Notes: generated by a model from the letters alone, not told the origin. A stretch of DNA of 64,000 nt from Frankiales bacterium (GCA_025966135.1 JAOPVP010000035.1:64078-128077); one strand, 5' to 3'; counted from the first letter of the stretch, positions 4,027-19,977 are shown. Program-made: numbers and translations.

Positions 4027-5015
4027 GCCAGGGCTTCCCAGGCGCGCAGCATCATGGCCTGACGCAGGCTGTGTCGCGCCTGCCGTTGCGGGTCGTCGAC
4101 GCCGTTCGGGAGGGATGCGATGAGGAAGGAAACCGGCTCGGGAGCAATGAGCGGTTCGAGCGCGACGGCCTCCGGTTGGTCGCTGAAGGGTGTTGCGGCT
4201 AGTAGCTGGTCGAGGAAGGCGTCGGCGTGCATCGGTGCGGGTAGCAGGGTGGTGCAGGCGGCGAGCTCTCGGGCCGCCAGGACGGCGGTAATAGGCGCGG
4301 CGAGCGTGGCCCAGGGCCGGTCGAGCGTGTTGCTGGCACCCGATAACAGCCATCCGACGTAGTTGCCTTCTTCGGCGCAGATGTCGATGGCCCGCTCGGC
4401 CCATCTGCTGACCTCGTCGACCTGCTCGAGAGTCTTGTCGAAGCCCAACTGAACGTACGTTGCGAACTTGGCGAATGCCGTCGACACCGTCTCCAACGTG
4501 ATACCTGTCTCCGCAGGCATCGCCGCGGCGATCGCCGTCGCCGTCTGCTTGCTCCAGATCTGGATCTTGGGCGCTTCCGGTGGCAACGCGAGTGCTCGTC
4601 GTTGCTCGGCCAACGTGCTGAGCCGATGCTCCGCGTAGCTCGTCAGATCCGGGACGAGGGGTACCCAGCCCAAGAGTCCGGCGAGAGCGCAGCCGTACCC
4701 CGCCAGCGTGCTTAAGCGGTCCTCGTCCTGGTCTCCGTCGAGGATCTCCCACAGGCAAGCCCCGGCCAGGACAGCGGCTTCCCGGTCGTTGTCACGCATC
4801 CGGAAGGTGTTGTCCGCGGCCTTGATCGCGTCCCGGAACCAGATCCCCCGGTCGGCGGACTGTCCTTGTGGGTGGGCGATGGCGATGAGGTCGAGGACCT
4901 GGGCCCCGGTAAGCCCCCCGACGACGTCGTTAGCCCCGACCTCTCGGGCCTTGAGGACGTCTCCAGCGAGCGCGATGCCGACCTCGGCGTGCCAGTCAGC
5001 GAACAGCTTGTTCAT
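4023..5015 (-). CDS. All-helical 330-aa protein (GASH-like, GTPase-associated system helical protein)
   Basis: Clean ORF with normal amino-acid composition. ATGA overlaps at both ends (5012-5015 and 4023-4026). No catalytic motif is visible. The family name is from memory only. Confidence 0.55.
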   Translation of the reverse strand: MNKLFADWHAEVGIALAGDVLKAREVGANDVVGGLTGAQVLDLIAIAHPQGQSADRGIWFRDAIKAADNTFRMRDNDREAAVLAGACLWEILDGDQDEDRLSTLAGYGCALAGLLGWVPLVPDLTSYAEHRLSTLAEQRRALALPPEAPKIQIWSKQTATAIAAAMPAETGITLETVSTAFAKFATYVQLGFDKTLEQVDEVSRWAERAIDICAEEGNYVGWLLSGASNTLDRPWATLAAPITAVLAARELAACTTLLPAPMHADAFLDQLLAATPFSDQPEAVALEPLIAPEPVSFLIASLPNGVDDPQRQARHSLRQAMMLRAWEALA

Positions 5016-6361
5016 GTCGTCCTTTCCTGCCCGCGGAGGGTCGCCGCGGCGATCCGCGCAGCCAGAAGCTGCCGGGTTGCTTCGTCGTGCACGCGACTCA
5101 TTACGTCGAGAATCATCGTGACGTGGTCCTTAGTGCGGTCCTCAACTCTTAGGAGCCCGCAGTCGGTGAGCACTTGCTCCTGGTCCGGTACGGCCAGATC
5201 GAGTAGGTCCCTGTAGAGCCGTCGTTCAGCGTCCACGTTGCCCTCCTCGTCGACCAGCGGTGGCCGACTGTCCGCACCGGCTGACGCATCCTCGTCGACG
5301 TCGATGCGCTCAGTGCATAGTGCCGCAGGGTCGGCCGGCGGAGGGCAGTGCGGCACCGATACGTCAGAGGGCGCTGACGGTGCAGGTATTAGCGGTAGCG
5401 GCAGTTCTTCGTGGTGCGCCTGGCCCTCGCCGTGCCCGGATCGGAATTCGTTCCACTCCGGCCGCAGGACACGCTGATAGATGTCCAGTAGGAGAACGGC
5501 GTGGCCGTGGTCATCGCCGCGCACGTCGAAAGTGAGCCAGTTGTAGGTCGGGTGCCACCCAGGCGGGTCCTCCTCGGGGTGCACCGCGCCGGCGATGATT
5601 TCCAGGCAGTCGTTGACGCGCTGGATGCGCTGGTCGTGCCGGTGCCCGCACAGCAGAGCCCACGCCTTGCCCTTGATCCGGTCGCGAATCTCGACACGAT
5701 CACGGCAGTCTTCTGGGCCGTGGTGCGCCAGGAGGAGGTAGATCGCGCCGGGGGTGTCACGCGGGAGCACCGTCTGGGTCCGGCCGACGACAAGGCTGCC
5801 GTCGGTGTCGTCGCCATCACTGTTGAACACGGTGGTCAGCCCGCGTACGGCCAGGTGGTACCCGCGGGGCAGCCCGATCGTGGCCTGCCACGGCTGGCCG
5901 TTGGCGGCCACCTCGCACCGATACCCGAGGGCGAATTCGTTGTAATTGGCGAGGGGCGCGAGCAGCGGGGCGCCTGGATCCTCAAGGAGGGTGTCTACCA
6001 GCGCGGTGACGTCCGGTACCGGGCACGTCCGCAGGCCCTGGCGGGCGGTCCGCGCAGAGGGGGAGATCAGCGGCCAGTGCACATCGTGGTTGCCGGGCAC
6101 GGTGAGGACTTGGCAGTTCGCGGTGCCGACCAAGGCAGCGACCTCGTCCAGCCAGGTCTTGGCTCGACCGTACTCCGCCTCGTCCCCGCTGAAGGCGATG
6201 TCTCCAGTGACGACGAGTGCGGTTGCTGGGCCGAGTCTTGCTTTCATCCGCTCCAGGTCGCGCATCAGCTCAACCCGAACGCCACGGTTCCGTTCGGCCG
6301 CGGCGTTGGTCTTGCCGGTGAAGTGGATGTCGCTCAGGTGAACCAATACAGCAGGCTCCAC
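5012..6361 (-). CDS. Calcineurin-like metallophosphoesterase with C-terminal helical extension (candidate effector)
   Basis: Motifs VHLSDIHF, VVTGDIAFSG, PGNHD, LLAHH, LCGHRH. GTG start at 6361 is preceded by GGAAGGAG about 10 nt upstream. Confidence 0.85.
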   Translation of the reverse strand: MEPAVLVHLSDIHFTGKTNAAAERNRGVRVELMRDLERMKARLGPATALVVTGDIAFSGDEAEYGRAKTWLDEVAALVGTANCQVLTVPGNHDVHWPLISPSARTARQGLRTCPVPDVTALVDTLLEDPGAPLLAPLANYNEFALGYRCEVAANGQPWQATIGLPRGYHLAVRGLTTVFNSDGDDTDGSLVVGRTQTVLPRDTPGAIYLLLAHHGPEDCRDRVEIRDRIKGKAWALLCGHRHDQRIQRVNDCLEIIAGAVHPEEDPPGWHPTYNWLTFDVRGDDHGHAVLLLDIYQRVLRPEWNEFRSGHGEGQAHHEELPLPLIPAPSAPSDVSVPHCPPPADPAALCTERIDVDEDASAGADSRPPLVDEEGNVDAERRLYRDLLDLAVPDQEQVLTDCGLLRVEDRTKDHVTMILDVMSRVHDEATRQLLAARIAAATLRGQERTT

Positions 6362-7287
6362 TCCTACGCGCTCCTTCCGGCACTGACGCGGCGCCCGTCG
6401 ACGTCACATGTTCTGGACAGGCTGGCACTGTGCCACACCGCACCGACATCCAGCCCCCGTCTTGCCATACCGGGCAAGCTGCCCGGGTAGAGCTGGGAGA
6501 AGTACTGACCGTCGGGGGTCGTCGGCGCGCAACCGGGCGAGCACCAGTGGTCCAGCCCTGGCGTGAGCAGCGCCCAGGATCCTGGTACGACCGATCGAGC
6601 GGGGCGTGCCTCCTTGGGCCATGTCGTTCACCACCGAGTACTCCTGTGATGTCCCGCTCGGCAAAGGGCGGTCCGACCAGAGAGGTCTGCACCGAGGGGC
6701 GCCGCCGGGCGGCTCGCCCGGGGCGGGTAGCTGACCTTCGGTGTGGAGCTTGGAGAAGCTGCAACGTGACTGACAGTGACGCCCGTTCGTGCCAGCGCGG
6801 CGGTTGGAAAAGCTTGTCGGGGTGCAGGTAGCGCGGGGCCTCATGGACTAGGCGCAGGACGGTTGGGGGGTTCCTCCAGCGGGTCGACGATCTTGACCGG
6901 AAGTTCCTGGGGTCTGGCCACCGGTCAGCGTTGGTCGTGCAGCAGCTGCTCGAGGGTCGGGCCCGCGGAACCGGTCGCACAGGGGTAGTCGACGGACTGG
7001 CCTGAGCTCGAGGGGCCGTTTCCAGACGCTGGAGGGCGCTGGTTGGCAGTGGCGAACCCATGCCAACGAGGCCCTGAGAGCCGTGGCGGTCCCCCAGGGC
7101 GCGTGGATGAGCCCGGCGGCTGCGGGAGCGTGTCCTCACGCGCCCGGAGCCGCACTCGGGGATGATGGCAGGGCCTCGACGAGCGTTGTCGACGGCTGGT
7201 GTCCGAGGTGCCGTTGACTTGCCGAGTGGCTCGTCCGGGCACTGTGCGTCTCGGGCGCCTGAGGGGCGCCCACGGAGAAGAGGGATC

Positions 7288-8385
7288 GTGACGGAGTTCA
7301 GCGACAAGCAGGTGGTCTACTCGACCGCGCTGGGCAGTCAGGTCTGCGGTGACTCCCTGGAGTTGCTGGCACAGATGGCCGACGAGTCCGTCGACCTGAT
7401 CGTGACCAGCCCGCCCTTCGCCCTACTGCGGGCCAAGAAGTACGGCAACGAGGACCAGGCCGACTACATAGCATGGTTGGCGAAGTTCGGCGAGGCGGCT
7501 CACCGGGTGCTCAAGCCCACGGGCAGCCTGGTGATCGACCTCGGCGGTGCGTACGTCAAGGGCAGGCCGACACGGTCGCTCTACCAGTACCGGGTGCTGC
7601 TTAAATTCGTTGATGACCTCGGGTACCACCTGGCGGAGGAGTTCTTCTGGTACAACCCGTCCAAGCTGCCGAGCCCGATCGAGTGGGTGAACAAGCAGCG
7701 AATCCGTGTCAAGGACGCGGTCAACACCGTGTGGTGGCTGTCCAAGACGGAGCGGCCGAAGGCTGACGTCAACCAGGTACTGGTGCCGTACTCGGCGCGC
7801 ATGAACAAGCTCCTCGAGAACCCGGCGGCGTTCTACGATGCCAAGGCCCGGCCGAGCGAGCACGACATCAGCATGAAGTTCGGCCGCGACAACGGTGGGG
7901 CCATCCCGACGAACCTGCTGACGATTCCGAACACCGACTCGAACTCGGGCTATCTGCGGACGGCACGAGCGCTGGACATCCGGTCGCACCCGGCCCGCTT
8001 CCCTGAGGGGCTGCCGGAGTTCTTCATCAAGTTCTTGACCGAACCGGGCGACCTGGTGGTCGACATCTTCGCCGGGTCGAACACGACCGGCATGGTGGCC
8101 GAGCGGTTGGGCCGTCGCTGGCTCGGGTTCGAGCTTGACCGCGAGTACGCGGCCCTATCGATTCTGCGGTTCGTGTCCGACCGTCCGTTGGACGTCGTCC
8201 GGACGCTGTACGACCTCGCGCAAGAAAAGTGGATCGACCTAACTCCATCTCCGGCGCCGTCTGCGGCTGTCGCTGGGGCTAGGACGACGAGTGGTCGCAG
8301 ATCACGCACGAAGAAGGCCGTCGTCGAGGCGGCCGTCGAGGTTATGGCTGGTCTACCAGTCAAGAAGCGCGCACGTCGGACCTGA
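7288..8385 (+). CDS. Beta-class N4-cytosine/N6-adenine DNA methyltransferase (SPPF type, M.PvuII-like)
   Basis: Motif IV DLIVTSPPFAL lies N-terminal and motif I VVDIFAGSNTTG lies C-terminal. GTG at 7288 is preceded by GAGAAGAGGGA. The track start at 7162 adds an Arg/Gly-rich leader that is unlikely to be real. Confidence 0.9.
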   Translation: MTEFSDKQVVYSTALGSQVCGDSLELLAQMADESVDLIVTSPPFALLRAKKYGNEDQADYIAWLAKFGEAAHRVLKPTGSLVIDLGGAYVKGRPTRSLYQYRVLLKFVDDLGYHLAEEFFWYNPSKLPSPIEWVNKQRIRVKDAVNTVWWLSKTERPKADVNQVLVPYSARMNKLLENPAAFYDAKARPSEHDISMKFGRDNGGAIPTNLLTIPNTDSNSGYLRTARALDIRSHPARFPEGLPEFFIKFLTEPGDLVVDIFAGSNTTGMVAERLGRRWLGFELDREYAALSILRFVSDRPLDVVRTLYDLAQEKWIDLTPSPAPSAAVAGARTTSGRRSRTKKAVVEAAVEVMAGLPVKKRARRT

Positions 8386-8519
8386 CCGGGTCGCCGTTCG
8401 GCGGGCGGGCAGTCAGCCCGACGTAGTCAATGTCGTGCCCGCGCCCGTCTGAGTTCCTCATCGGAGAGCACAGGGAGGCTCCCTGGAAGCGTTGACCGGC
8501 CGGTACCTCATACACGTCT

Positions 8520-8915
8520 CTACAGCTGGGCTGCCGCTGGGGTGTACATGAGGTCGGCGAAGTGGGTGACTGCGCCGCTCTGCAGGTCCTCCCACAACTT
8601 CACGAGGCCCAGGCTCATCAGGGTCTCAGCGATGACGTACGGGTCGGCCGCGTCGGGGTACAGAGCCGCCATCAGAGAGCGGATGTCGCCCGTGGGGTCG
8701 AAGGACCCAACGTTCTGGTTCTGGCCGTCGCCGGCCTTACCGAAGCCTTGGCCCCGAACGGGCTGCAGCTCACAGCGGATGGCGTAAGCGAGGCCGACGC
8801 GGATGACCTGCTGGCCTTCCTCGAACGGGAACCTGTCGCGGATGGCGTCCTTGGCGATCTCTGCGGGTCCGGTCAGCGCAATGTTGACGCGCCCACCGCC
8901 TGTCGGCTCCGTCAC
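8520..8915 (-). CDS. Small DndE-like protein (uncertain)
   Basis: 131 aa. The GTG start overlaps the stop of the upstream ATPase (GTGA at 8912-8915). Size, position after a DndD-like gene and the sequence pattern (..VIRVGLAYAIR.. / ..ETLMSLGLVKLWEDL..) recall DndE. Not verified. Confidence 0.45.
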   Translation of the reverse strand: MTEPTGGGRVNIALTGPAEIAKDAIRDRFPFEEGQQVIRVGLAYAIRCELQPVRGQGFGKAGDGQNQNVGSFDPTGDIRSLMAALYPDAADPYVIAETLMSLGLVKLWEDLQSGAVTHFADLMYTPAAAQL

Positions 8916-10873
8916 GTGTTCCTCAGCTCGGTGATGGTGGTGTTGTTGGCGGTGACTCGCTTGAGCTCGTACTCCGCAAGGAGCCGGCCGTGCAGCTGCT
9001 TGCGTGCGGTCGCTCGGTCAAGCTCTCCTTCGTGGACGAGCAGGAAAACCTGCTTGGCCAGGACGGTGAGCTGCCCGACGACGGCCTCGACGTGCTCGGG
9101 ATCCAGTCGACCGAACGGGGAGTCCATGACGACGGGACCGGTGATCGGGGAGCACTCCTGGAGCGCGCCGATGAGGCTGAGGGCCACGAGGTGCTCGTAG
9201 CCGGCGGAACGGTCCTCGACGGTGTTGCCCTTGCTGTCCAGGATGCGGAGGCCGTACTGGTCGTTGATCGTGAGCTTGGCGAAGTCGACCTCTGCGCGCA
9301 TGTTGCGGAACAGCTTGGAGGCCGTCTCCTGCACGTCCTCCTTGAGCTTGTCGCGGTAGGCGACAACCGCCTGGTCGAACAGTGCCGCGAGCGCTGCGGT
9401 GACCTTCTCGCGGGCAAGGGTCGCGGGGTCGGCGGTGCCGGCGCCGGCGGCCTCGATGGAGGCGCGCAGCTTGTCGATCTGGCCGCCCATGTTGTTGTAG
9501 CTGTTGGTCTGCTCGAGGAAGACCTCCTGCGCCTTCTCGAGCCGAACGGCGAGTTCACTGCCGCGCTTGGCGAGCGCGTTGAGCTCCTCTGCTGGGGTGT
9601 CTCGGAGCTGGTCGTCGAGCTGCTCGAGATCGTCCTTGGTGTCGGCGACTTGAACGTCGAGCTCGCGGTAGGCCCTCTCGAGCGCACGCAGGTCAGCTCG
9701 GGCTTGCTCGTCGACGATGCGGCGGAGCGTCTTGACGCGGGCGGCCGCCGCGTGGACGTGGTCGTTCAGCTCGACCAGGGAGCTGCCGTTGGCCGGTGCC
9801 AGGACCTGCTCGAGGTGGTGACGGTGGGGTTCGTCCAACGGTGACGCGCACGCGGGGCACGCCTGCTCGCCGCTGCCGCGGAAGGTGGTGCTCAGGGCGA
9901 CCGCGACGGTGACCGTCGACAGCCGCTCACGGTCTTGCTCCAGCTCGGCCTCGAGCTCGTCGACGGCTGCAGTGAGGGGATCGACGAGGACGGCCCGCCA
10001 CGCGTTGGCGAGGCCGGCGGCAAACGCGGTCTTCGCCTCCTGATGCCTGTCCTGCAGCTCCTTGAGGCTCTCCCGCATCAGGTCACGACGTCCGAGCAGG
10101 TCCAGCTTGCTCTGCTGCTCTGCGAGCGCCTCTTCAACTTGGCGTGCCTCAACCTGGAGCGTCGCGATGTGCTCGCTCTCGGTGTCCTTGTTCGCCCGGT
10201 AGCTGCTGCGCATGGTCTGCGCCTGTTCCAGGGCTTGTCCGAGTTCGCGGGTACTGCGTTCGCGCTTGGCGGCCTCAGCGATCGCCTTTCCCGCTTCCTC
10301 CGCCAGGGTGCGCATATCTCGCGCCGCGTTAACTACGACCGGAACGCCGAGGACCTTCTCGATCGACTCGCGCAGCGGCGAGCCCGTAGGGGCTTCGTCG
10401 TCGACGAGCCGCTCGTACTGGTCGAGAAGCTCACCATCGAACAGAAAGAACTGCTCGATCTCAGGGGGCATCAGTTCCGCGAGCCGCTTGCTGGTGTCGG
10501 AGGCTGTGAGGGTGACGCCGTCCTTGACGAGCGTGACGTCCTCACTGAGGGCACCGCCCTCGTTCACGATGGAGCGGGTGAGGTCCCAGCGGGAACCCTC
10601 TGCGGTGAAGCCGAGCCGGACCCGGCACGTGACGGCTGCGCCGTCCGCTTCGGCGAGGGCGTCACGGTTTACGAGCCGGTCCGGGGTCACGGCGCGGCTG
10701 CCGCGGCTGCGGGCAGCGCCGGTCCACGCCCACCGGATGGCGTTGAGGAAGCTCGTCTTCCCCTTGCCGTTGCGGCCGTAGACGATGACGACGCCTTCCC
10801 CGTCCGGGAAGGTCATGGTCTGGGTGCCGGCGAAGACACGGAAGTTCGCGACCGTGAGCTCGTGGTACCTCAT
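8912..10873 (-). CDS. DndD/SMC/Rad50-like ABC ATPase with long coiled coil and central CxxC
   Basis: Walker A GRNGKGKTS, signature-like RSAGYEHLVALSL, Walker B/D-loop PVVMDSPFGRLD. Heptad-rich middle region with CPAC at its centre. ATGA overlap with the upstream small gene at 10870-10873. Confidence 0.85.
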   Translation of the reverse strand: MRYHELTVANFRVFAGTQTMTFPDGEGVVIVYGRNGKGKTSFLNAIRWAWTGAARSRGSRAVTPDRLVNRDALAEADGAAVTCRVRLGFTAEGSRWDLTRSIVNEGGALSEDVTLVKDGVTLTASDTSKRLAELMPPEIEQFFLFDGELLDQYERLVDDEAPTGSPLRESIEKVLGVPVVVNAARDMRTLAEEAGKAIAEAAKRERSTRELGQALEQAQTMRSSYRANKDTESEHIATLQVEARQVEEALAEQQSKLDLLGRRDLMRESLKELQDRHQEAKTAFAAGLANAWRAVLVDPLTAAVDELEAELEQDRERLSTVTVAVALSTTFRGSGEQACPACASPLDEPHRHHLEQVLAPANGSSLVELNDHVHAAAARVKTLRRIVDEQARADLRALERAYRELDVQVADTKDDLEQLDDQLRDTPAEELNALAKRGSELAVRLEKAQEVFLEQTNSYNNMGGQIDKLRASIEAAGAGTADPATLAREKVTAALAALFDQAVVAYRDKLKEDVQETASKLFRNMRAEVDFAKLTINDQYGLRILDSKGNTVEDRSAGYEHLVALSLIGALQECSPITGPVVMDSPFGRLDPEHVEAVVGQLTVLAKQVFLLVHEGELDRATARKQLHGRLLAEYELKRVTANNTTITELRNT

Positions 10874-11055
10874 GGTGCTGCCGGCTTGAGGTGCTCCGTG
10901 ATGGCCTGGGTGACTTGGTCCCGCGCGCGCAGACGGTCGTCGTGGCTGGAGGCCTCGATCTCGAGGATCCGGGCGACGAGCTCTGCTGGGAGCTCGGGGA
11001 AGGACCGGGCACGGACGGCTTCCACCGTCTCGCCAAGCGCTCCTAGGTCCCTCAT
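10870..11055 (-). CDS. Small (61 aa) helical protein of unknown function
   Basis: ATG at 11055 is preceded by GAGGAA. An alternative TTG at 11103 would overlap the helicase stop. Wedged between the helicase and the ATPase. Confidence 0.5.
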   Translation of the reverse strand: MRDLGALGETVEAVRARSFPELPAELVARILEIEASSHDDRLRARDQVTQAITEHLKPAAP

Positions 11056-11099
11056 GTGATTCCTCGTTCTCTCGGATGGTCCGCTTCTAGCTGCGGGTG

Positions 11100-13220
11100 T
11101 CAAGCTTCTGCCTCCTCGTCGTCTTCGATGCCGGAATCGAGTTCGGCGTAGAGGCCCGCCAGGTCGATGCCGACGTCGAGGCAGGCCTGTTCGAGCAATA
11201 GTCGGGAGTCCGTGTTCAGGGCGCTGCGGGCGAACTGGCCGGCGCGGGCGAGTTCCCCCCAGACCAGGGCGCGCGTGGTGTCGTCCACCTCGCCAGCCGG
11301 TAGCACGATCAGGTCATAGATGATGGCCAGCGTCTTCGTGCCCGAGGTGCGCAGGACGCGACCGCGCCGCTGGATGAACTCGCGAGGGTTGCGGGAGGAG
11401 GCGGCGATCATGGCGTGGCTGCATTCGGGGATGTCGACGCCCTCGTCAAGACACTTGATCGAGACGACGACCCCGCCGTTCACGCGGAAGTGACGAAGGG
11501 TGGCCTTCTTGTCGGCCTCCATGTCGGAGTGGTAGGTGAGCGTGTCGATGCCGGCGTCACGGAGCCCGGCGGCCACTAGGTCCATCTGGTCGATGTCGTC
11601 GCAGTAGACGAGCCAGTGGTCGCCCGTGGTGTAGTGCGTACACAGCGTTGCGATCACGGTCGGTGCCTTGGCGGCCGCCTTCTTGGCGATGCGTGCTCTC
11701 TGCATGATCATGACTTTGACGGCGGGTCTCTTGAGCGCGTCGGCTCCGCTGCCGCCGGCGGCAATGGCTCTGCCGATCTTGCGGGTCAGCTCCGCCCACT
11801 GCTGCTGCTCTTGGTCGTCGAGCCGGACGGTCTGCGGGTGGTATAGGTAGTTGCAAAGCACGCCGTCTCGCATTGCGTCCTCAAGCGAGTAGCGGTGGAC
11901 GATCCCGCCGAAGTAGTCGAACAGGCGCTCGGTGCCCTCGGGGTCACCGGCACGTTCGGGGGTGGCTGACAGCCCCAGCCGGTAGGGCGTGTCGAGCTGG
12001 AGCAGCCCTGCGTAGGACGGAGCTCCCAGTCGGTGGACCTCATCTCCGACGACCAGCAGCTCGCTCGCCGTCCGAACCTGGCTCAGGAACCGCTCGGAGG
12101 CCGCGGTGGGAGCGACTGCCACGATCACGCGCTGCGTTCGGGTATCGGTGACCCAGGTGCTGAGCTTGTCCTTCCAGTCCACGTTGCCGGCTCCGCACAG
12201 GTGGACCCGCCGGCCAGCCGGGCCGAGCTCTTCGCGCAGTTGCGCGAACCACTGGGTCGCGACGAGCTCGGTGGGGGCAATGACGATGGTGGGGCCGACG
12301 TGCTGGCCGATCACGGTGATGCCGGTGACGGTCTTGCCGGAGCCGGTCGCGTGAGCCAGGATGCCGCGCTTGCCGTTCGCTTCCCACGCGGCGATGCCGG
12401 TGACCTGCTGCTTGCGCAGTGGACGCCCGGTCGGGGTGACCTGGGTGGTGGCGACCCGGTCTTTCACGGCCGCGAGCTCATCGACGATCTCGCGCCAGTC
12501 CGTTCCTTCGGTTGCCTGCTGCAGAACGACCTGGAGGCCCGCGGGGAGGCTAAGAACCTCGATGCCGTGGGCCTGCCCTGCCCACAGGTGGTCGAACCGC
12601 CGTACGGCGTTGCTGACCCTCTTGGCGTCCCGGTCCCCCGCCCAGCTGGGCCAGGCGTCGATGGACTCGACGTTGCCTCGGGCGCTGGACAGTCCCAGGT
12701 AGCTCTCATTGGCCGAGCCCCGAAAGCCGATCGCGTTCCCGACCTTGTCGTGGAACAGACCGACCTTGTCGTGGAACATCCGGCGGTCGCCGGGGTCCTT
12801 CGCGTCTTCGAGCCTGGCCAACTTGACCTCGACGATGCCTGCGGCGACCAGACCGGCGAAGGCCAGGGCGGGCTTGCGGAGTTCGTAGCGACCCAGGAGC
12901 TCGTCGAGCTCGCCGGCGAGCGTGCTGGCGAGTTCAGCGTCGTCCCGGGCCGCGTAGCCGCGGCCGGCGTTTTCGGTGTCCACAGGACTCAATCGCGGGG
13001 AGCAGAGCAGCCGGATCTTTCCGTGACGTTCGACGAAGCCCCGCAAAGCTGGCCAGTACAGCAGGAAGGCTCCGCTGGAGAAGAAGCCGGTGATGCGGTC
13101 GTAGCGATCCGCCCCGCCCATCGCTGGTCCGTAGAAGTCGCTGGCTAAGTCCGAGGCGTCGCTGCTGTAGTCGGGCTCCGGAGTCCACAGGGTGCCGTTC
13201 CACCCCAGGGCCGCGGTCAC
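11100..13220 (-). CDS. PLD-family (HKD) nuclease domain fused to SF2 (ResIII/DEAH) helicase
   Basis: N-terminal FHDKVGLFHDKVGNAIGFRGSANES (HxK...GSxN). Helicase motif I AHATGSGKT and motif II VVGDEVH. C-terminal helicase motifs QRRGRVLR. Confidence 0.9.
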   Translation of the reverse strand: MTAALGWNGTLWTPEPDYSSDASDLASDFYGPAMGGADRYDRITGFFSSGAFLLYWPALRGFVERHGKIRLLCSPRLSPVDTENAGRGYAARDDAELASTLAGELDELLGRYELRKPALAFAGLVAAGIVEVKLARLEDAKDPGDRRMFHDKVGLFHDKVGNAIGFRGSANESYLGLSSARGNVESIDAWPSWAGDRDAKRVSNAVRRFDHLWAGQAHGIEVLSLPAGLQVVLQQATEGTDWREIVDELAAVKDRVATTQVTPTGRPLRKQQVTGIAAWEANGKRGILAHATGSGKTVTGITVIGQHVGPTIVIAPTELVATQWFAQLREELGPAGRRVHLCGAGNVDWKDKLSTWVTDTRTQRVIVAVAPTAASERFLSQVRTASELLVVGDEVHRLGAPSYAGLLQLDTPYRLGLSATPERAGDPEGTERLFDYFGGIVHRYSLEDAMRDGVLCNYLYHPQTVRLDDQEQQQWAELTRKIGRAIAAGGSGADALKRPAVKVMIMQRARIAKKAAAKAPTVIATLCTHYTTGDHWLVYCDDIDQMDLVAAGLRDAGIDTLTYHSDMEADKKATLRHFRVNGGVVVSIKCLDEGVDIPECSHAMIAASSRNPREFIQRRGRVLRTSGTKTLAIIYDLIVLPAGEVDDTTRALVWGELARAGQFARSALNTDSRLLLEQACLDVGIDLAGLYAELDSGIEDDEEAEA

Positions 13221-13227
13221 TGCGGCC

Positions 13228-13836
13228 TCACGTGGTCGTGTCCGCGATCAGTCGGTCTACGGTGCGCTGCCAGCGCAGCTCGAGGGCGCGCTCGAGGTTG
13301 CCCGCGGTAGCGGCGACGACGGTCTCTCGCAGGCCGGAGTTGCGCATCCGTCGCTCCTGCTCGGCCAGCCCCTTGGTCATGGCCGAGTACAGAGTGGAGT
13401 CCAGAACTTGGCAGCCTCGCGAGAAGGCTATGCCGTCGCCGATGTCGTAAACGCCCGCGTCCCAGAGGGCGTAGACCCCGAGGCTCTGCGAGTAGCCGGC
13501 GAGCACGACGAACGCGCCGTTCGACCAGTCGAAGTGCGCGGGCTGCTTGCCGCTGTTGAGCGTGATCTGGATGCGGAACGCGCCCATCTGCCTCTCGGAG
13601 GTGTGAGTCGTAAGGTTGAACAGGTACACGCGCAGGAGGGGCGGCAGCGAGTCCACGGCATGGAGCACGAGCGGCTTGTACAGCGCCGCGTTGGGCGTTG
13701 CTGGCGTGGCTGCGCCCTCGAGGTCGCGGATCATCTGCTGATGCGCCCGGGTCGTGCTCGCGGCAGCCCTGACCCGCGTGGCGCTCAGCTCGACCAGCGA
13801 CTCCATACCTGGCAGCTTCTCGCACTCTGCGCTCAT
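13228..13836 (-). CDS. Hypothetical protein, first gene of the helicase/ATPase operon (possible DNA-recognition module)
   Basis: Clean ORF ending 7 nt before the helicase start. The start is uncertain (TTG 13857, ATG 13836 or ATG 13806). No catalytic motif recognised. Confidence 0.6.
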   Translation of the reverse strand: MSAECEKLPGMESLVELSATRVRAAASTTRAHQQMIRDLEGAATPATPNAALYKPLVLHAVDSLPPLLRVYLFNLTTHTSERQMGAFRIQITLNSGKQPAHFDWSNGAFVVLAGYSQSLGVYALWDAGVYDIGDGIAFSRGCQVLDSTLYSAMTKGLAEQERRMRNSGLRETVVAATAGNLERALELRWQRTVDRLIADTTT

Positions 13837-14430
13837 TGGAAGCGACAACGCGCTCAACGATCAGGACTCGGGCATGCTCCCCAACGTCCCGACTCCAGCG
13901 CAGCGGGCAGGTGGGCCCGTCCCGCGCCTGCCGGGCGGCCTTCCAGCCCCCGTTGTGATCTGTGCCGCCCGGCAAAGACGTGTCAGAGTGCGGGCGGACC
14001 CGGCACAGTGGTCGGCATTACGAAGGACCGGCTCTCGGTGGGCAGCAAGGGCAGCCACCACCGAGGCTCGTCTGGGTACTACAGCAACCAACGTGGCCTC
14101 TTCGAGCTCCGCTCCCGCACGCACGACGCAGCCGCCTGCTTCGCAGCCGAGGAAGGCTGGTGGCTGCATTTGCTGGGACTGGGTGCCCTCGGACCACGAC
14201 GAGGTGGGGTCACGGTCGTCGGGAAGCCGAACCCGCCGTGGAGCGCTCGCTCCGATGAACGCGCCCGTGGTAGAGGCCGTGCGGCCCCAGCCCCTGATAT
14301 CCCAACCAGCCGAGTAGGCGACGGAACAAGACTGACACTGGCGCGATCAAGTTCATCTGACACTGTTCTCGTTACCACGACGTGAAACTTGCAAAGTCCC
14401 CCGACAGACTCACGAGCATGGAGGCGCGAC

Positions 14431-14964
14431 ATGCCGGCAGCGGACCCCCCACGGGTGCTCTGCGCCGTCCTCGCCAGTCCTCCGCTGACCAGCGGGGGAC
14501 GGACCCGCGGCGCGTTGGCGCTCGCAGCCGACCTGCTCGGCTGCGACATCGTCCGCATCGTCAACCTCCTGGCCCTGCCGACGCGCGACCTACCCGAGAT
14601 GTCGGAGGTGGGTGCCGAGGGCGGAGCCTGGGAGGCGGGGCGTCCGGAACTCCTGGCAGGGCTGCAGGCCGGCGATGCACTGTTGGCGGCCTGGGGGGTG
14701 TCGGCTCTGACCGGGGCGGCCCGAGTTCATCATCGGTCACAGGTGGCCTGGCTGGTGGACGCCGCAGCGGAAGTGGGCTGTGATCGGGTGTGGACCGTCG
14801 GACCGCAGCCCCGTCACCCTTCGAGATGGCACCAATACGTCAGTGACCGGCACCGTCGAACGAGCACCGCAGCGACCACGGCGGAACGCCTGGGCGAGGT
14901 ACTCCTGCAGCGCGAGTGGGCGTCGCTTCTGCCTACGGGACCTGCAGCGCACGCTCGAAGATGA
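14431..14964 (+). CDS. DUF1643-like protein
   Basis: ATG at 14431 is preceded by GGAGGCG. Pattern ..RIVNLLALP..ALLAAWG..PRHPSRW resembles DUF1643 as I remember it. Confidence 0.6.
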   Translation: MPAADPPRVLCAVLASPPLTSGGRTRGALALAADLLGCDIVRIVNLLALPTRDLPEMSEVGAEGGAWEAGRPELLAGLQAGDALLAAWGVSALTGAARVHHRSQVAWLVDAAAEVGCDRVWTVGPQPRHPSRWHQYVSDRHRRTSTAATTAERLGEVLLQREWASLLPTGPAAHARR

Positions 14965-15186
14965 GGTCCGTTGGCGCGAAAATCAGTTCGTCGCCGTCCT
15001 GCTTCGAACCTCTTGGTTATAAGCCGGGTGGAGTGCAGCCGCGAGCAGTCGGATGCCCCGGTCAAGTCACGGGCAGCGAGAGCCATCTCGGGTGGTTCGG
15101 CTCGGCGATTCTGTCTTACGAGCAGTCGTAACGTGCTGCGATGTCAAGCACGAGTCCGTCTCATCGCGGGATAGTGCCGGATCGGG

Positions 15187-16551
15187 TCAGCTCGATTCCT
15201 CCAGCAAATCCGCACGTGAGGGTTCCGAGTTCATCTTGGCGCGAGTGGCGATCCGTTCGGCCAGTTCAGCGAGCCGTCCGACGTCGCGTACGCCCTCAGT
15301 CATCTCCGCCTGGGCCGCCTCAAGCGCCGCACGATGCGTTGCAACGGAACCTTCAGGCGCCACAGAGCCAAAGCCGGTGGTTACTGAGACGTGGTCGGGC
15401 TCAACAGCGATGCGCAACGTGTAGCGACCTGGGTACTCCTGGCCCGGCACCTCCCTGGAGACCTGACACACCACTTCCACCAGCGGTCGCCTCTCCAGAC
15501 TCAGCAGTCGGCAGGCGACAAGCGAGTCAAGCAAGTGCGCGCCCTCGAATCGAACAGCGTGCAGAAGCGGACGTCGCGCGTCGGACTCGTCGTCGTCGCC
15601 GGCCTGCTCTCCGACCTTAAACTTGGCGACCGTCAAGTTGAAGTTCTTGAAGCCGCTGGCGGGGAGCCGCGTGTGCAGCAAGTCCAGCAGAAACAAACTC
15701 CCCGGGTTGAGCTGTGGAACGTTGCCCTGCACGTCTGCTGGGACCAAGGACAGCGCCGACGCTGTCGTTACGTCCGCTGCGGTTTCAAGTGCCCGAACCG
15801 CGGCACGAGCCACCAGCGAAGAAGCCCCGGAGACGACCAGCGGGGCCCCGGGGGCGATGCGCACCGATGCATGGTGATTGGTCGGAACCGCGCGGAGGGT
15901 CGGACGCGAGTTGATCTCGTCCAAGTCGGTTTGGTAAGCCTTATACGAACCCGCGAGATTGAATGCGCCTGCGGCGACGCGATCTACAGACTCGAAGACG
16001 AACCACCTGGCCACACCGATACGGATGTAGCGGCCCAGCACGTAGTCCAGTTTGCTAAGGACCTGCTTAGTGACGAGCGGATCGGCCAAAGGGAACAGAC
16101 GACCGACGTGGCCGCGCTCCGGAGGTGGGGCTTCTTCGTTCTGAAGTACGAGACGCGCTACCTCCTCTGAATCCCAGGAGTAGGCGCGTCCAATTCTTGT
16201 CGCCAACACTTCCGCCGAACCGACTGAACGCAATTCACGCTCTTCGGCCAAACGACGCAAGGTGCTGGCCTTGAGACCAATCAATGCCTTCTTGATGACC
16301 TCACGCTCAACCTCGTCAGCGTCGAGGCCGCCGGTGTCCGATTCGACAGCAGGGACCACCTCATCCTCGAGGGCCTCGCGAACGGCAATCGACAGGTAGT
16401 CACTTACATCCGCAGCCAAGCGGATGCTGTCGTCACGACCGCCTTTGGATCGCAGCTGCAGTCCGAAGTTTCGCGCCTCGCTCAGGAGGTCCGAAACCGC
16501 TCGGTCGAGATCCTCTGCATGAAGCACCATGCGGTTCGCCCTAGCCACCAT
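15187..16551 (-). CDS. Hypothetical 454-aa protein with an HeH/SAP/Rho_N-like motif
   Basis: Normal composition. LKASTLRRLAEERELRSVGSAEVLATRI resembles a SAP/Rho-N helix-extension-helix. The start overlaps the upstream gene end by 11 nt. Confidence 0.7.
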   Translation of the reverse strand: MVARANRMVLHAEDLDRAVSDLLSEARNFGLQLRSKGGRDDSIRLAADVSDYLSIAVREALEDEVVPAVESDTGGLDADEVEREVIKKALIGLKASTLRRLAEERELRSVGSAEVLATRIGRAYSWDSEEVARLVLQNEEAPPPERGHVGRLFPLADPLVTKQVLSKLDYVLGRYIRIGVARWFVFESVDRVAAGAFNLAGSYKAYQTDLDEINSRPTLRAVPTNHHASVRIAPGAPLVVSGASSLVARAAVRALETAADVTTASALSLVPADVQGNVPQLNPGSLFLLDLLHTRLPASGFKNFNLTVAKFKVGEQAGDDDESDARRPLLHAVRFEGAHLLDSLVACRLLSLERRPLVEVVCQVSREVPGQEYPGRYTLRIAVEPDHVSVTTGFGSVAPEGSVATHRAALEAAQAEMTEGVRDVGRLAELAERIATRAKMNSEPSRADLLEESS

Positions 16552-16882
16552 CTGTGACCTCCTCCCGCACGAACTGCTGCAGCACGACCCAGCCGGCAGC
16601 AGTGCAGATCTTCCACCATACGTCTGCGTCGGACACTTCCATCGATGCCGTCTTCAGGACGTGCTCCTCCAACTCACCCTCCACATCCAGAGTGGCGGCG
16701 ATGGCCTGAACCAATCCCTCATTGGGAACCTGTCCATCGGGTGAAAACGTCAGCAAGCGAGCTCTGAAGGCTTTGATCGCGGCCGCATAGTCGGCCTTCC
16801 GGAACTCCCGCCGGGCAACCCACTTTTTGAGTCCGAGAACCCGGGCCGTGTCCGCGCAGTGAACGGGGATCCGGACGCCCAC
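16541..16882 (-). CDS. Hypothetical 113-aa protein
   Basis: GTG at 16882 lies 1 nt after the TAA stop of the upstream membrane-protein gene. An alternative TTG is at 16912. Confidence 0.55.
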   Translation of the reverse strand: MGVRIPVHCADTARVLGLKKWVARREFRKADYAAAIKAFRARLLTFSPDGQVPNEGLVQAIAATLDVEGELEEHVLKTASMEVSDADVWWKICTAAGWVVLQQFVREEVTDGG

Positions 16883-16883
16883 G

Positions 16884-17204
16884 TTAGCTCTCGGTCCGGA
16901 GGCCGAGAGCAACCAGCAAGGCGAACACCGGCTGACTCACGATCGCAGCAAGCAGTGCGATCGCAACCAGCTCACTCGTGAAGTCCCCTGGCCAAGGGCA
17001 ATACAGCTGGGACCAAGCAGCTCCAGCGCCGACGGCTACCAACGAAAGAAGGGCCACCACGAGACCTGCAAGCCAACCTGCGGGGAGAGGCAGATTCGGC
17101 AAACGTCGTTGCTGGGAACCCAAGACGTTGAAGATCAGACCTAGCACGGCCAAGAGCAAACTCTCCGTGGAGAGCAACGCAGCGATGGCGTCCGAAGGCG
17201 TCAT
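16884..17204 (-). CDS. Small three-pass membrane protein
   Basis: Three hydrophobic segments (LLLAVLGLIFNVLG, WLAGLVVALLSLVAVGAGAAW, LVAIALLAAIVSQPVFALLVALGL). ATG at 17204 was chosen; the track start at 17303 adds a non-membrane leader. Confidence 0.55.
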   Translation of the reverse strand: MTPSDAIAALLSTESLLLAVLGLIFNVLGSQQRRLPNLPLPAGWLAGLVVALLSLVAVGAGAAWSQLYCPWPGDFTSELVAIALLAAIVSQPVFALLVALGLRTES

Positions 17205-17600
17205 CACTGCACTCGCCACCTGGTCCCCCTCGTCACCCACCCATGGCGAAATCTGCCGGGTGGCAGATCGTAACTTAGGTGGACACATCCATAGGTCCGG
17301 CACGGCTCATGCGTGTCGCGAAGGCGCTTGCTCACCCGCTCAGCCCGCCGAGTGGTGCTGCACCTCCCGACCGACTGGCCCTGGGAAGCGGACTGGACCC
17401 AGATGGCGAACGGCGCTCGGCACGGGCCTCCGGCCGCGGCCTGACCCATCCACCCAGTCCGACCAGGACCAACCGGAACACCACGTGGAGACCACCGGCC
17501 AGCCGGGCCGACAAGCACGCCCTCAACCGGTGAGTACCGCCGCACCTCGCTCAAGCCTCCAACAGATCGGCTGACGGTGGATCCAGGCTGAGGCGGGCGG

Positions 17601-17794: not shown

Positions 17795-18103
17795 TCAGGC
17801 GAAATCGCGCCAGATTGCGCCACCCTCAGATGGCTCAAAGCCCGACTGTCCGGGCCATGGCACGGCACCGAACTCCCAACGGAAGAGCAAGTTGACGAGC
17901 ACCGCGATCAAGGCACCGTCTGCCCAGCGTATCCATCGTGGCAACCCCATAATGGGCCTCGTCACAAAGATCTGAATCGGCAAGAGGAGAAGCCAGGTCA
18001 CGATCGCCAACGGAACAACGATCCAAAGCAGGACCGCCCGCAGGAGATAAAGGCCCAGTCCCGCCAACACCATTCTCGCGATTCGCATGGTCGCCCCAAA
18101 CAC
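17795..18103 (-). CDS. Small membrane protein, candidate immunity for the orphan Rhs tip
   Basis: Hydrophobic 102-aa ORF starting 3 nt after the orphan tip stop (GTG 18103, or ATG 18088). Confidence 0.6.
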   Translation of the reverse strand: MFGATMRIARMVLAGLGLYLLRAVLLWIVVPLAIVTWLLLLPIQIFVTRPIMGLPRWIRWADGALIAVLVNLLFRWEFGAVPWPGQSGFEPSEGGAIWRDFA

Positions 18104-18105
18104 GT

Positions 18106-18655
18106 CTAGAAGCTAGATCGCTCATACCACGGGACTCGATGCAGCGGGTTTGGCAGCACGCCCTTCACTGCCCGCGTGAGGTTGCCTCTCACTCCACAAC
18201 GCGACGTGCAGCGTTGCATGCCGTGTCGAGTCTGATGATAGCCCCGCACGACCCGGGCAGAACCAGTGAACATCTGACTGCCGCCGTACCCCGCCCCAAG
18301 CGCTCCGAGAGGCGCCAAGGGCGATCCCATCACCGCTACACCGCCCACGAAGAGGCGTGCACCTGTGTAGACCTTGTAACTTCCGTAAGCGATGTTCACG
18401 GTTCCCGCGGCGAACGCCCCAATCGTGGCTGCCGAGATAGCGCTTGGCCTTGTTCCAACGGCAGCGTGGGCCGCACCAGCGTCCGTCGAGGTCGAAGTTG
18501 TTGATGGGGTCGGCGTTGATGTAGTCGTAGGCGTTCGCTGAGCCGCCGGGGATGGGGTCGACTTGCAGGAACCTTCCTAGGACTGGGCTGTAGAGGCGGA
18601 CGCCCATGAGCACGACGCCCCCGAGCGCGTCACCGGATCGTTGTTTGCCGCAACA
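18106..18655 (-). pseudogene. Orphan Rhs C-terminal core plus toxin tip, no N-terminus, frameshifted
   Basis: GKQRSGDALGGVVLMGVRLYSPVLGRFLQVDPIPGGSANAYDYINADPINNFDLDGRW parallels the end of the full-length Rhs. After ..WNKAK the reading frame must shift by 1 nt near 18441-18443 to continue as AISAATIGAFAAG... Confidence 0.7.
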
Positions 18656-19340
18656 CAGACGCCCACCACGACCTACCGCTGCGACACCGCCATTGACCGA
18701 CGCTGACCTGCAGCAATGCACCCCAGAACCCCGACCAGCACCTGGTCCGTGAGGGCCGGGAGCCCGACGCGAGTTCCGGCTGCAGGACCGGCCGTGCTCG
18801 ACGCCCTGACGGCCGCTCAGGCCGTCGACACCGACGGCCGCGCGCTGACCCTGGGCGGCTGAGGAAGGACCCGCCCACGCGCCCACGACAGCCCTCGGGG
18901 CGGCGGCGGGGTGGGCGGTCATGAGCGTCAGTCTGGCAGCCCCAGCGGGTTCGCGGCGGCAAGCTCGACCAGGACGTCCCGGCCGCGCCGAGCAGCGCCC
19001 TCGGGGGCGTGTGTGAGGACTTTCTTTACGACTATCAAGGCCGACGGCTCCGGGCGGCCGCTGCGCGGCCGTCCTCGCCCCCGGCAACGACCAGAGCAGG
19101 AGCCGGGGCGCCTCTACTCCCGGGACGTCCCGCATCCCGTCCCGCGTCACGTCCCGGAATCCGCCCGGATCACGTCCCGGATCGCCTCACTGGCAAGGAT
19201 CTTGGCAACCTGAGTGCCCTTCGCGCGGACCGCTGGCAAGCCCGCCGGCAACCCCCTCGTGGTAGCGGGCGCGACTCTTGCCCACAAGCGAGCGGGCAAG
19301 ACGATGGGCAAGACCAACCGCGTCGCTCAGGCGGCCGTCA

Positions 19341-19460
19341 CTGCCCGCGCGGTCGTGGTCTGCCGACCGCCGGCTGGTCACTGTCGGCGAGCACCAGGCC
19401 GGCACCCCCGAAGGGGGGCCAACTGTGTGGCATGTCCTCAGCTGTTGCCCGGCTGCTCGC
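19341..19460. repeat. Copy B of the duplicated structured element
   Basis: See copy A. The hairpin here (19401-19420) is GGCACCCCC-GAA-GGGGGGCC, against GGTATCCCC-GCAG-GGGGATCC in copy A. Confidence 0.7.
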
Positions 19461-19551
19461 TCACGGTGAGCGCGGGACACGCGCCGGCCGGGTACTCGCG
19501 AAGCGATAACACCTGTGTGCCTGGGCAACCGGCCCGGAGGGCAGGCGGGCA

Positions 19552-19977
19552 TCAAACGAGGAGCCGGGCCAGAACGACGCCAATTATCGTCGCGGCCGTT
19601 ACTGCAAGTTCGAACTGCACCGAGATGGCCGATTCAACGTCCTCTCTCGCGGTCGCCGCGGCCGAGATGACGCTCAATGCGAGTAGAGCAACAGGCAGCG
19701 CAACGAGCACCAAGAAGGCGGTGTCGCCCGAACCTGGGCCGATGCCCAGACCCTCAAGGGAAGCACGCACCAGAGCGGCGACGAAGATGAACGGCACCAC
19801 GAGCGCTGCCCAGACGAAGGCCGCGTCTGCGAAGGGACAACTCGGCTCAATTGACCGACGCGTCTCGCGCCCATTCGATGATTCGAAGAGGGCCCGAAAC
19901 CTGTCGTTGATCAACCAGGTGAGCCCGTTGTCGACGGGATGAACCGAGTAGGGCTGCTGCCCCCCTCGCCTAGTCAT
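19552..19977 (-). CDS. Three-pass membrane protein, candidate Rhs immunity
   Basis: ATG at 19977 overlaps the rhs stop by 8 nt (ATGACTAG). Three hydrophobic helices. Confidence 0.65.
   Translation of the reverse strand: MTRRGGQQPYSVHPVDNGLTWLINDRFRALFESSNGRETRRSIEPSCPFADAAFVWAALVVPFIFVAALVRASLEGLGIGPGSGDTAFLVLVALPVALLALSVISAAATAREDVESAISVQFELAVTAATIIGVVLARLLV

Follow-up and report, generated by a model that had tools for sequence, protein, structure and literature searches.

What is a compact cassette of three genes, none of whose products can be placed in a known sequence family, doing among the conflict genes of a Frankiales bacterium? The cassette occupies positions 15187-17204 of a 64,000-nucleotide stretch of DNA from a metagenome-assembled genome of this organism (GCA_025966135.1, JAOPVP010000035.1:64078-128077). 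The whole of that stretch is referred to here as the window, and positions are counted along it unless preceded by the name of another locus. The three genes, termed A, B and C, encode a small membrane protein, a soluble protein of 113 residues and a larger protein carrying a SAP-type motif; an initial annotation of the DNA proposed that together they form a novel membrane-coupled defence or abortive-infection module. The cassette proves to be a horizontally mobile three-component operon of Actinomycetota, carried in defence islands or at the integrase-proximal ends of elements. By analogy, from the fold of protein C, the architecture of the cassette and its neighbourhood, it may act as a Rex-like, membrane-coupled exclusion module of the abortive-infection type, directed against phages or other invading DNA; this reading is put forward tentatively.

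A conserved three-gene unit

All three genes lie on the minus strand, in the order A-B-C as read from the sequence. Gene A (16884-17204) runs from an ATG at 17204 to a TAA at 16884 and encodes 106 residues; gene B (16541-16882) runs from a GTG at 16882 to a TAG at 16541 and encodes 113 residues; and gene C (15187-16551) runs from an ATG at 16551 to a stop at 15187 and encodes 454 residues. The packing reads just as first annotated, with a single nucleotide between A and B (TAA-C-GTG) and an overlap of 11 nucleotides between B and C (16541-16551). In an independent Logan assembly of the same organism B and C are again called, at 113 and 454 residues. A Shine-Dalgarno sequence for C, GGAGGAGG (16558-16565, minus strand), can be read within the 3' end of B, 6 nucleotides before the ATG of C; together with the overlap, it implies that translation of the two genes is coupled. 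A scan for sigma-70 promoters and terminators around the cassette was uninformative in this organism.

Two other gene calls were rejected. A longer version of gene A, beginning at a GTG at 17303 and encoding 139 residues, is unsupported, as homolog alignments begin at or near the ATG at 17204. An antisense open reading frame (ORF) inside gene C (15391-16170, plus strand, 259 residues) is judged a high-GC artefact, because the minus-frame C has at least 51 full-length homologs and a confidently predicted fold. The antisense ORF outscored C in a naive gene caller based on GC3 (the GC content of third codon positions), and ORF length alone is misleading here.

The C family is real but rare. The 51 full-length homologs share 33-47% identity and every one is annotated 'hypothetical'. 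Searched exhaustively with a profile, 1.84 billion cluster representatives yield only 199 clusters of the family at 50% identity, and a pattern scan finds it in 8 of 185,579 species-representative genomes. The named hosts—Arthrobacter, Kineococcus, Modestobacter, Frankiales, Acidimicrobiia/Acidimicrobiales and Solirubrobacterales—all belong to the Actinomycetota. Loci were sampled from species-representative genomes (8), from metagenomes (21) and, for the others, by exact look-up. Word-indexed homolog searches with A and B returned only the source protein and one match, and these two families were therefore built from the fetched loci, by BLAST and then with iterated hidden Markov models (HMMs).

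Co-occurrence across these loci establishes the cassette as a conserved unit. In 28 of the 30 distinct loci with enough upstream DNA, as well as in the window, A, B and C occur together with order and strand unchanged, packed in a way that implies translational coupling; these loci span Arthrobacter, Kineococcus, Acidimicrobiales, Solirubrobacterales and Frankiales, and the two exceptions are L007, with a fragment of C, and L035, with a truncated cassette. The distance between A and B ranges from -1 to +13 nucleotides across the 28 loci, with a single case of 35 nucleotides. B and C overlap by 4-19 nucleotides (mostly 4-11) in 25 of the 28; the others comprise L008, in which the two genes are fused in frame, and two loci with gaps of +3 and +12 nucleotides. 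With order, strand and tight spacing recurring in 28 distinct loci, chance falls far short of explaining the arrangement. The idea that a fourth gene is conserved on one side or the other was rejected, the only signal being low-score, frame-inconsistent tblastx noise.

Fusions provide a second line of evidence. At L008:5396-7162, B is joined in frame to the N-terminus of C, and gene A still precedes the fused gene. About 20 C-family clusters consist of proteins of 520-600 residues that are longer at the N-terminus by ~110 residues, an extension matched by the B HMM with E-values down to 4e-15; these natural B-C fusion proteins include P0099, P0101, P0102, P0105 and P0106. Fusions of this kind are a classic indication that the two proteins work as a single physical unit.

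Decayed copies of the cassette also exist. L035:5668-7238 retains an intact C and a 57-residue remnant of B, lacks A, and is adjoined by a truncated guanylate-cyclase/AAA_16 gene. At L007:2490-3203 only the fragment of C is left.

Three unannotated protein families

The view that the three proteins stand outside known families is upheld at the level of sequence. A, B and C were scanned singly and then as sets of 30, 29 and at least 49 family members, and no model in Pfam, PADLOC, NCBIfam or PHROGs matches any of the three. When 79 family members were scanned individually, none fell into a Pfam or PADLOC family, the SAP domain in C homologs being the sole exception. PADLOC v2 contains both defence models and candidate (PDC) models: neither kind matches the cassette, with no hit for B or C at E<=1, a chance-level value of 0.021 for A, and a best E-value over the 79 family members of 0.004, which was counted as a non-match. 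Profiles of A, B and C had no match better than E 0.1 among the sequences of the entire PDB.

The SAP motif of protein C, LKASTLRRLAEERELRSVGSAEVLATRI, is encoded at 16192-16275 (minus strand) and spans residues 93-120, with helices at 95-104 and 113-123 in an AlphaFold2 model. It comes after an invariant E84-x2-K87-K-A-L helix, and A102 and G111 within it are invariant. The helix-extension-helix character noticed at the outset holds at the level of the family: Pfam SAP (PF02037) matches 7 of 49 C homologs, with a best E-value of 2.1e-5, and SAP_new25 matches 4. The window protein falls below the SAP threshold, yet it aligns column for column with its family and is modelled as helix-extended-helix.

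The AlphaFold2 model of C, a cytoplasmic protein, was built from a 49-sequence alignment and has a predicted local distance difference test score (pLDDT) of 87.2 and a predicted template modelling score (pTM) of 0.82. It opens with an N-terminal strand and long helices, continues through the SAP helix-extended-helix into two alpha/beta sheet domains and closes with two long C-terminal helices. The body of the protein, at approximately residues 145-440 (15232-16119, minus strand, boundaries approximate), contains the motifs RYIRIGVARWFVF, NLTVA(R/K)F, RPxLxAVRFEGxHLLDSxxAC and TGFG. Its first half is basic, with a pI of 9.9, the remainder of the protein being acidic, and many of the invariant residues of C are arginines.

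This body, described initially as a long beta-rich region of no recognisable family, indeed has no sequence family; its fold, by contrast, can be recognised. In Foldseek searches the model of the window protein finds no convincing match in the PDB, where CENP-N (probability 0.93-0.94) and DynU16 recur. Against BFVD, its top three matches are phage proteins with a probability of 1.00 and E-values of 8e-6 to 6e-5. Two of these three are annotated 'recombination-associated protein' and 'exonuclease', labels which are usual for phage homologs of RdgC, as seen when E. coli RdgC is searched by tblastn against phage records. A second model was made for the Kineococcus homolog (pLDDT 88.2), and here E. 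coli RdgC (2OWL_A) ranks second in the PDB, with a probability of 1.00 and an E-value of 3.6e-4. This comparison of a predicted model with a crystal structure aligns 350 columns and covers nearly all of RdgC, with a TM-score of 0.44 normalised to RdgC and a root-mean-square deviation of 8.7 Å that includes hinge differences. CENP-N is again among the matches, its probability overall being 0.85-0.94. Taken from the two models, C probably has an RdgC-type fold, as in RexA and CENP-N; residues 8-70, which form the N-terminal strand and helices, may be part of that modelled fold as well.

A cluster of conserved polar residues lies in the second alpha/beta domain (~15391-15528). Ser343 and Cys347 are invariant and Asp342 and His387 nearly so; residues 342-347 fall in the motif HLLDSxxAC and residue 387 in the motif DHV.

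Protein A was first described as having three transmembrane (TM) spans, and hydropathy agrees, placing them at residues 7-25, 45-63 and 80-98. The positive-inside rule predicts an N-out/C-in topology, from which the first loop, which is basic (QQRRLPNLP) and retained across the family, is inferred to be cytoplasmic. An HMM of the family finds A directly upstream of B in the 28 distinct loci. Across an alignment of 29 members E14, W64 and P92 are conserved, corresponding to a nearly invariant intramembrane glutamate in TM1 (LLTxES), an invariant tryptophan that ends TM2 and a (Q/E)-P pair within TM3. A is a small integral membrane protein and more than a hydrophobic anchor.

Protein B is soluble and acidic, with a pI of 5.7. 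An alignment of 30 members shows that W21, W89 and, at the C-terminus, a G(E/K)WP motif are conserved. The B family is new, and B is proposed to serve as an adaptor between A and C.

Likeness to Rex and other membrane-coupled systems

To our knowledge, no phage-exclusion system on record is older than RexAB, yet the route by which RexA activates RexB has still to be settled.

In phage lambda, RexA and RexB exclude T4 rII and can produce energetic defects in the host; RdgC and IML3/CHL4, the CENP-L/N of yeast, are structural homologs of RexA, as its crystal structure shows (PMC11077077). More generally, Rex-like systems pair an RdgC-type protein with a small membrane protein of four TM spans, and ion-channel activation followed by depolarisation has been proposed as their mode of action (PMC6426596, PMC11077077). 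Two Rex-like pairs from actinophages, Sbash (Mycobacterium) gp30/gp31 and CarolAnn gp44/gp43, defend their hosts, and the soluble partner is proposed to open an ion channel through a cytoplasmic loop (PMC6426596).

It is the combination of a putative RdgC-fold DNA binder with a small polytopic membrane protein bearing intramembrane polar residues, as in Rex, that suggests a Rex-like reading of the cassette. In lambda RexAB the gene of a soluble RdgC-type DNA-binding protein is likewise tightly linked to that of a small polytopic protein of the inner membrane, with which it is proposed to act (PMC11077077), and the matches of C to RdgC and CENP-N are to the structural neighbours reported for RexA. 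RexAB is proposed to cause the membrane potential to be lost and the infection to abort (PMC11077077), an output which would apply to the cassette by analogy. Comparable too are the Rex-like pairs of actinophages—Sbash gp30/gp31, CarolAnn (Gordonia) gp44/gp43, Toast gp42 and Sejanus gp46/45—whose hosts belong to the same phylum. Their RexA-like proteins, of ~340-370 residues, dimerise and bind DNA non-specifically, their partners are small proteins of 3-4 TM spans, and for them defence has been shown experimentally (PMC6426596, PMC11077077). Like C, they are undetectable by the Pfam RexA model or by hhalign to RdgC. Unlike the cassette, these pairs are borne by prophages, consist of two genes with the sensor preceding the membrane protein, and lack both a SAP motif and a B-like component.

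RdgC itself (Pfam PF04381; structure 2OWL) is the best solved-structure match of the C-family model with a meaningful probability, and phage RdgC-type proteins head the BFVD matches. It binds DNA non-specifically and inhibits the functions of RecA (PMC11077077). In contrast to C, it is a stand-alone protein of ~300 residues from proteobacteria and phages, without a SAP motif, adaptor or membrane partner, and the TM-scores between the two are 0.32-0.44. Full-text literature searches found no paper joining RdgC and a SAP domain, and no defence system based on an RdgC-like protein besides Rex.

A number of findings weigh against a Rex-like function. The Foldseek TM-scores of C are modest (0.3-0.5); DynU16 ranks first in both PDB searches, above RdgC by E-value and with a low TM-score; RdgC is found with one of the two models and is absent from the top 50 PDB matches of the window model; and RexA is not among the top 50 PDB matches. 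At the level of profiles, the C family compared by hhalign with an RdgC alignment of 7 members reaches a probability of 0.3 with an E-value of 0.18, and PF04381 does not match, though strand-strand-helix-'LG(S/Y)(L/V)P' segments of the two families fall into register in this weak, non-significant alignment. Nor is there sequence or profile similarity to RexAB: PF15969 does not match C and PF15968 does not match A, and C and 48 of its homologs have no RexA-family match in Pfam, NCBIfam or PHROG, whereas lambda RexA, as a positive control, matches PF15969 at 1e-97. By hhalign the C family reaches a probability of 0.1 against gp30, gp44 and gp46, and A one of 0.2 against gp31, gp43 and gp45, the range being 0.2-0.4 once lambda RexB is included. 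The cassette has three genes, with B as an extra component and the membrane gene first, where RexAB has two genes. RexB has four TM spans and is a basic protein of 144 residues; A has three and is an acidic protein of 106. RexAB resides in a temperate phage, as a rule at the immunity region, and the cassette in chromosomal islands and integrative elements. No relative of C was found in 50,697 phage records (by tblastn) or in IMG/VR, or among 72,556 plasmids in PLSDB. From the conservation of its residues, it is possible that Cys347, Asp342 and His387 of C form a hidden catalytic or metal site, and that the protein has an enzymatic activity of its own that has gone unrecognised. Finally, the association of the cassette with defence islands, set out below, is a qualitative judgement made without a background rate, and one locus (L009) lies in ordinary surroundings with no obvious defence or mobile genes.

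Of these points, the profile comparisons carry their own control. The actinophage RexA-like proteins aligned to RdgC by hhalign give a probability of 0.2 and are equally undetectable, so that negative hhalign results cannot exclude a structural relationship. The soluble partners also differ in size, RexA having 279 residues and C 454, with its SAP insert. By sequence, A and RexB/gp31 are analogous in architecture and not homologous. Likewise the cassette as a whole is Rex-like in architecture, yet it is built of three unannotated protein families and, judged by sequence, is not a member of RexAB.

How the cassette could act

A mechanism can be sketched on the Rex model. C, probably a dimer like RdgC and RexA, would use its SAP motif, along with the basic first half of its body, to bind DNA non-specifically, while B would tether C to A through one of the short cytoplasmic parts of A, the loop or the tail. 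In an infected cell the conformation of C might be shifted by the phage DNA, by intermediates of replication or recombination, or by a protein of the phage. The signal would then be relayed by B to an oligomer of A, which would dissipate the membrane potential and so abort the infection. It is plausible, though we stop short of calling it probable, that the cassette is an undescribed anti-phage system of three components, known to date only from Actinomycetota, in which C would be an RdgC-fold sensor with a SAP motif, B an adaptor and A a minimal effector with three TM spans. Such a system would be either a very ancient relative of lambda RexAB or an independent reinvention of its principle.

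If this were true, the pairing of an RdgC-fold DNA binder with a small membrane protein would be a general immune design outside prophages, reaching well beyond those of E. coli and a few actinophages, and the cassette would represent a chromosomal, three-part version of it in which the coupling of sensor to channel is genetically separable. The coupling element B, being encoded separately and yet repeatedly fused to the sensor, would give a direct handle on the interface between sensor and effector. A working system would add three unannotated families to the defence catalogue of soil Actinomycetota, whose repertoires are poorly charted. Should the function lie elsewhere than in defence, the cassette would still be a clean case of a conserved, mobile module that combines a membrane protein with a DNA-binding one.

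The same anatomy can be read in the opposite direction, from the membrane to the DNA. In Kiwa, a small multi-TM protein is encoded in an operon with a cytoplasmic, non-specific DNA-binding partner that is tethered at the membrane (PMC11785009), and the initial annotation likened the cassette to Kiwa in its logic. The closest functional analogues are instead lambda RexAB and the actinophage Rex-like pairs. KwaB has a different fold, Rossmann-like with DUF4868, and KwaA has four TM spans in a system of two genes (PMC11785009). Membership of Kiwa was rejected: A, B, C and their homologs have no Kiwa match in PADLOC, DUF4868 is not found, and no Kiwa structure appears in the Foldseek results.

A Kiwa-like defence without cell killing would nonetheless fit the A-B-C arrangement. 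Here A would sense phage attachment, DNA injection or conjugation, and B-C, once released or activated at the membrane, would coat the incoming DNA through the SAP motif and an RdgC-like ring, blocking replication or the steps of RecA or another recombinase. Kiwa offers a precedent for a small membrane sensor with a membrane-tethered, non-specific DNA-binding effector (PMC11785009), RdgC offers one for the inhibition of RecA (PMC11077077), and the defence and mobile-element neighbourhoods suit this explanation too. At only 106 residues A has little cytoplasmic mass, and could serve equally well as a pore or as an anchor or sensor. The intramembrane glutamate and the (Q/E)-P pair of A, however, are more suggestive of gating or of an ion path than of a protein that serves simply as an anchor, and PADLOC and Foldseek searches of the PDB detect no similarity to KwaA or KwaB. 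A defence of this kind is the main rival of the Rex-like reading and is considered unlikely.

Islands, integrases and an atypical composition

Within the window the cassette stands out by composition: GC content is 0.61-0.63 over 15000-17300, where the neighbouring kilobases lie at 0.66-0.69 and values elsewhere reach 0.74, and the GC3 of A, B and C is 0.67-0.74, compared with 0.84-0.89 in the adjacent Pbe genes. These values suggest that the cassette was acquired separately, from a donor of lower GC content and probably recently.

A defence- or conflict-island setting is supported qualitatively by the conflict genes of the window and by other loci. With the window counted, mobile-element or defence genes lie within 10 kb of the cassette in 10 of 11 contexts annotated with Pfam, L009 being the exception. 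At L011 they include a PIN toxin-antitoxin, Trypsin-CHAT-TPR/Trypco1 genes and the FtsK and RepSA genes of an AICE, an integrative conjugative element; at L012 a relaxase, NikA, a ligase, DndB and transposases; and at L013 an AAA_25/HTH_17 element. L035 has VapBC, an M78 regulator and a methyltransferase (MTase) with SNF2. In L036, L037 and L039 an integrase is directly adjacent to the cassette, and L039 also has GmrSD and HsdR. L038 has YagJ, ResIII and two MTases directly adjacent, a set resembling type III restriction-modification, and L040 has DarT, a glycohydrolase, a transposase and an integrase. When 117 ORFs flanking the cassette at 12 further loci were pooled and scanned, they gave PbeA, mad2/3/8, DrmA/D, BrxH, DpdE, HmaA, integrases, TrwC, ResIII and SNF2 as well as housekeeping genes (ABC transporters, a tRNA synthetase and FtsW), a mixture such as is expected at the borders of islands.

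One of these loci has a further feature. At L012:7857-9331, a DndB-like gene (PF14072) and an ORF of 70 residues immediately precede A at spacings of no more than a few nucleotides, whether gaps or overlaps, and the two may share a transcript with A.

These surroundings also bring into view a role in the biology of the mobile elements themselves. In such a role the cassette would be an addiction or stabilisation module, with A as a toxin restrained by B and C, or would act in entry exclusion, or would control DNA processing or recombination by means of an RdgC-like modulator of RecA at the membrane. The directly neighbouring integrases of L036, L037 and L039 would fit, as would the relaxase and NikA near L012, FtsK and RepSA of the AICE at L011, the excisionase-like HTH_17 genes of L013, L037 and L039, the TrwC and integrase of the pooled flanks and the atypical GC3 of the cassette; the biology of RdgC, moreover, is the control of recombination. 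The type of element nevertheless varies from locus to locus (AICE, plasmid-like with a relaxase, islands with a tyrosine integrase, transposons, or none), no gene for conjugation or replication is consistently linked, and the 72,556 plasmids hold no copy. A conserved DNA-binding protein of 450 residues with an adaptor is atypical for a toxin-antitoxin system. Defence cargo too clusters by integrases, and location therefore does not discriminate between this role and defence. On the whole a function for the element is regarded as rather improbable.

At the other extreme, the cassette might be a housekeeping tether between nucleoid and membrane, or a factor in chromosome organisation in Actinomycetota, with no part in conflict. 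RdgC is annotated as nucleoid-associated in E. coli, SAP domains bind chromosomal DNA and, at L009, the cassette sits among ordinary genes. This is very hard to reconcile with a family that is so rare and patchy (199 clusters among 1.84 billion, and 8 genomes of 185,579), with variable insertion sites and mostly mobile or defence neighbours, with an atypical codon composition, and with the existence of decayed copies such as the truncated cassette of L035 and the C fragment of L007. A housekeeping role is accordingly given very little credence, and a Rex-like defence function is still preferred.

Neighbouring genes in the window

Adjacent to the cassette, on its downstream side, lies a Pbe-type set (7162-13857) comprising an MTase (PADLOC MTase_II, type II-like, E 8e-146), a PbeC/DndD-like ATPase, PbeA (E 2e-184) and MTaX1. 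The set comes without any of the dnd or ssp sulfur-modification genes, and looks like a methylation-associated Pbe-type restriction system. At one other locus (L026:6574-13492), whose C is 31% identical, MTase-x-PbeA-PbeC again lies ~2 kb downstream of C. Pbe-type genes thus accompany the cassette in 2 of ~30 distinct loci, which indicates an association and not a dependency.

Upstream of the cassette, on the same strand, is the Rhs gene reported by the initial annotation, which encodes a protein of 2106 residues with an RHS_repeat match. The gene named as the other flank did not fare as well. This ORF (14389-14964, plus strand), which converges on gene C and encodes 177 residues in the Logan assembly, has no Pfam or NCBIfam match at E<=1 and no precomputed Pfam match in Logan, and its DUF1643 label was not reproduced by any of these sources.

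Between the cassette and the Rhs gene lie two small membrane ORFs (17795-18103 and 19552-19977, minus strand), which are likely to encode immunity proteins, and an orphan C-terminal fragment of Rhs (18122-19150, minus strand). The fragment repeats the motif at the end of the main Rhs core, GG(V/I)VLMGVRLYSPVLGRFLQ(V/T)DP(I/V)PGGSAN, and then diverges. The layout of 17795-19977 is typical of a displaced toxin-tip array.

These neighbours raise the question of whether the cassette is an accessory to one of them, as extra immunity or orphan genes of the Rhs locus or as a sensor or effector added to PbeA, PbeC and MTaX1. It does lie directly downstream of the Rhs gene, the immunity-like ORFs and the orphan fragment, on the same strand; the L026 arrangement repeats that of the window, and the DndB-like gene of L012 is just upstream of A. 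Other loci, on the other hand, have no Rhs or immunity homologs flanking the cassette, and membership of the Rhs locus was rejected for this reason; no other neighbour from the window recurs either, L026 excepted. With Pbe-type genes at so few loci and the tight three-gene structure kept throughout, an accessory role is most improbable.

At the far end of the island, a GTPase-centred conflict system (60-6361, minus strand) consists of GAP1-N1 (60-2171), DO-GTPase1 (2153-2983), DO-GTPase2 (2980-4758) and GASH (4023-5015); the ORFs at 2980-4758 and 4023-5015 overlap, and the boundaries of these genes are uncertain. The last part of this region (5012-6361, minus strand) encodes a metallophosphoesterase with weak similarity to the anti-phage proteins DS8/DS9 and to PADLOC PDC-S60.

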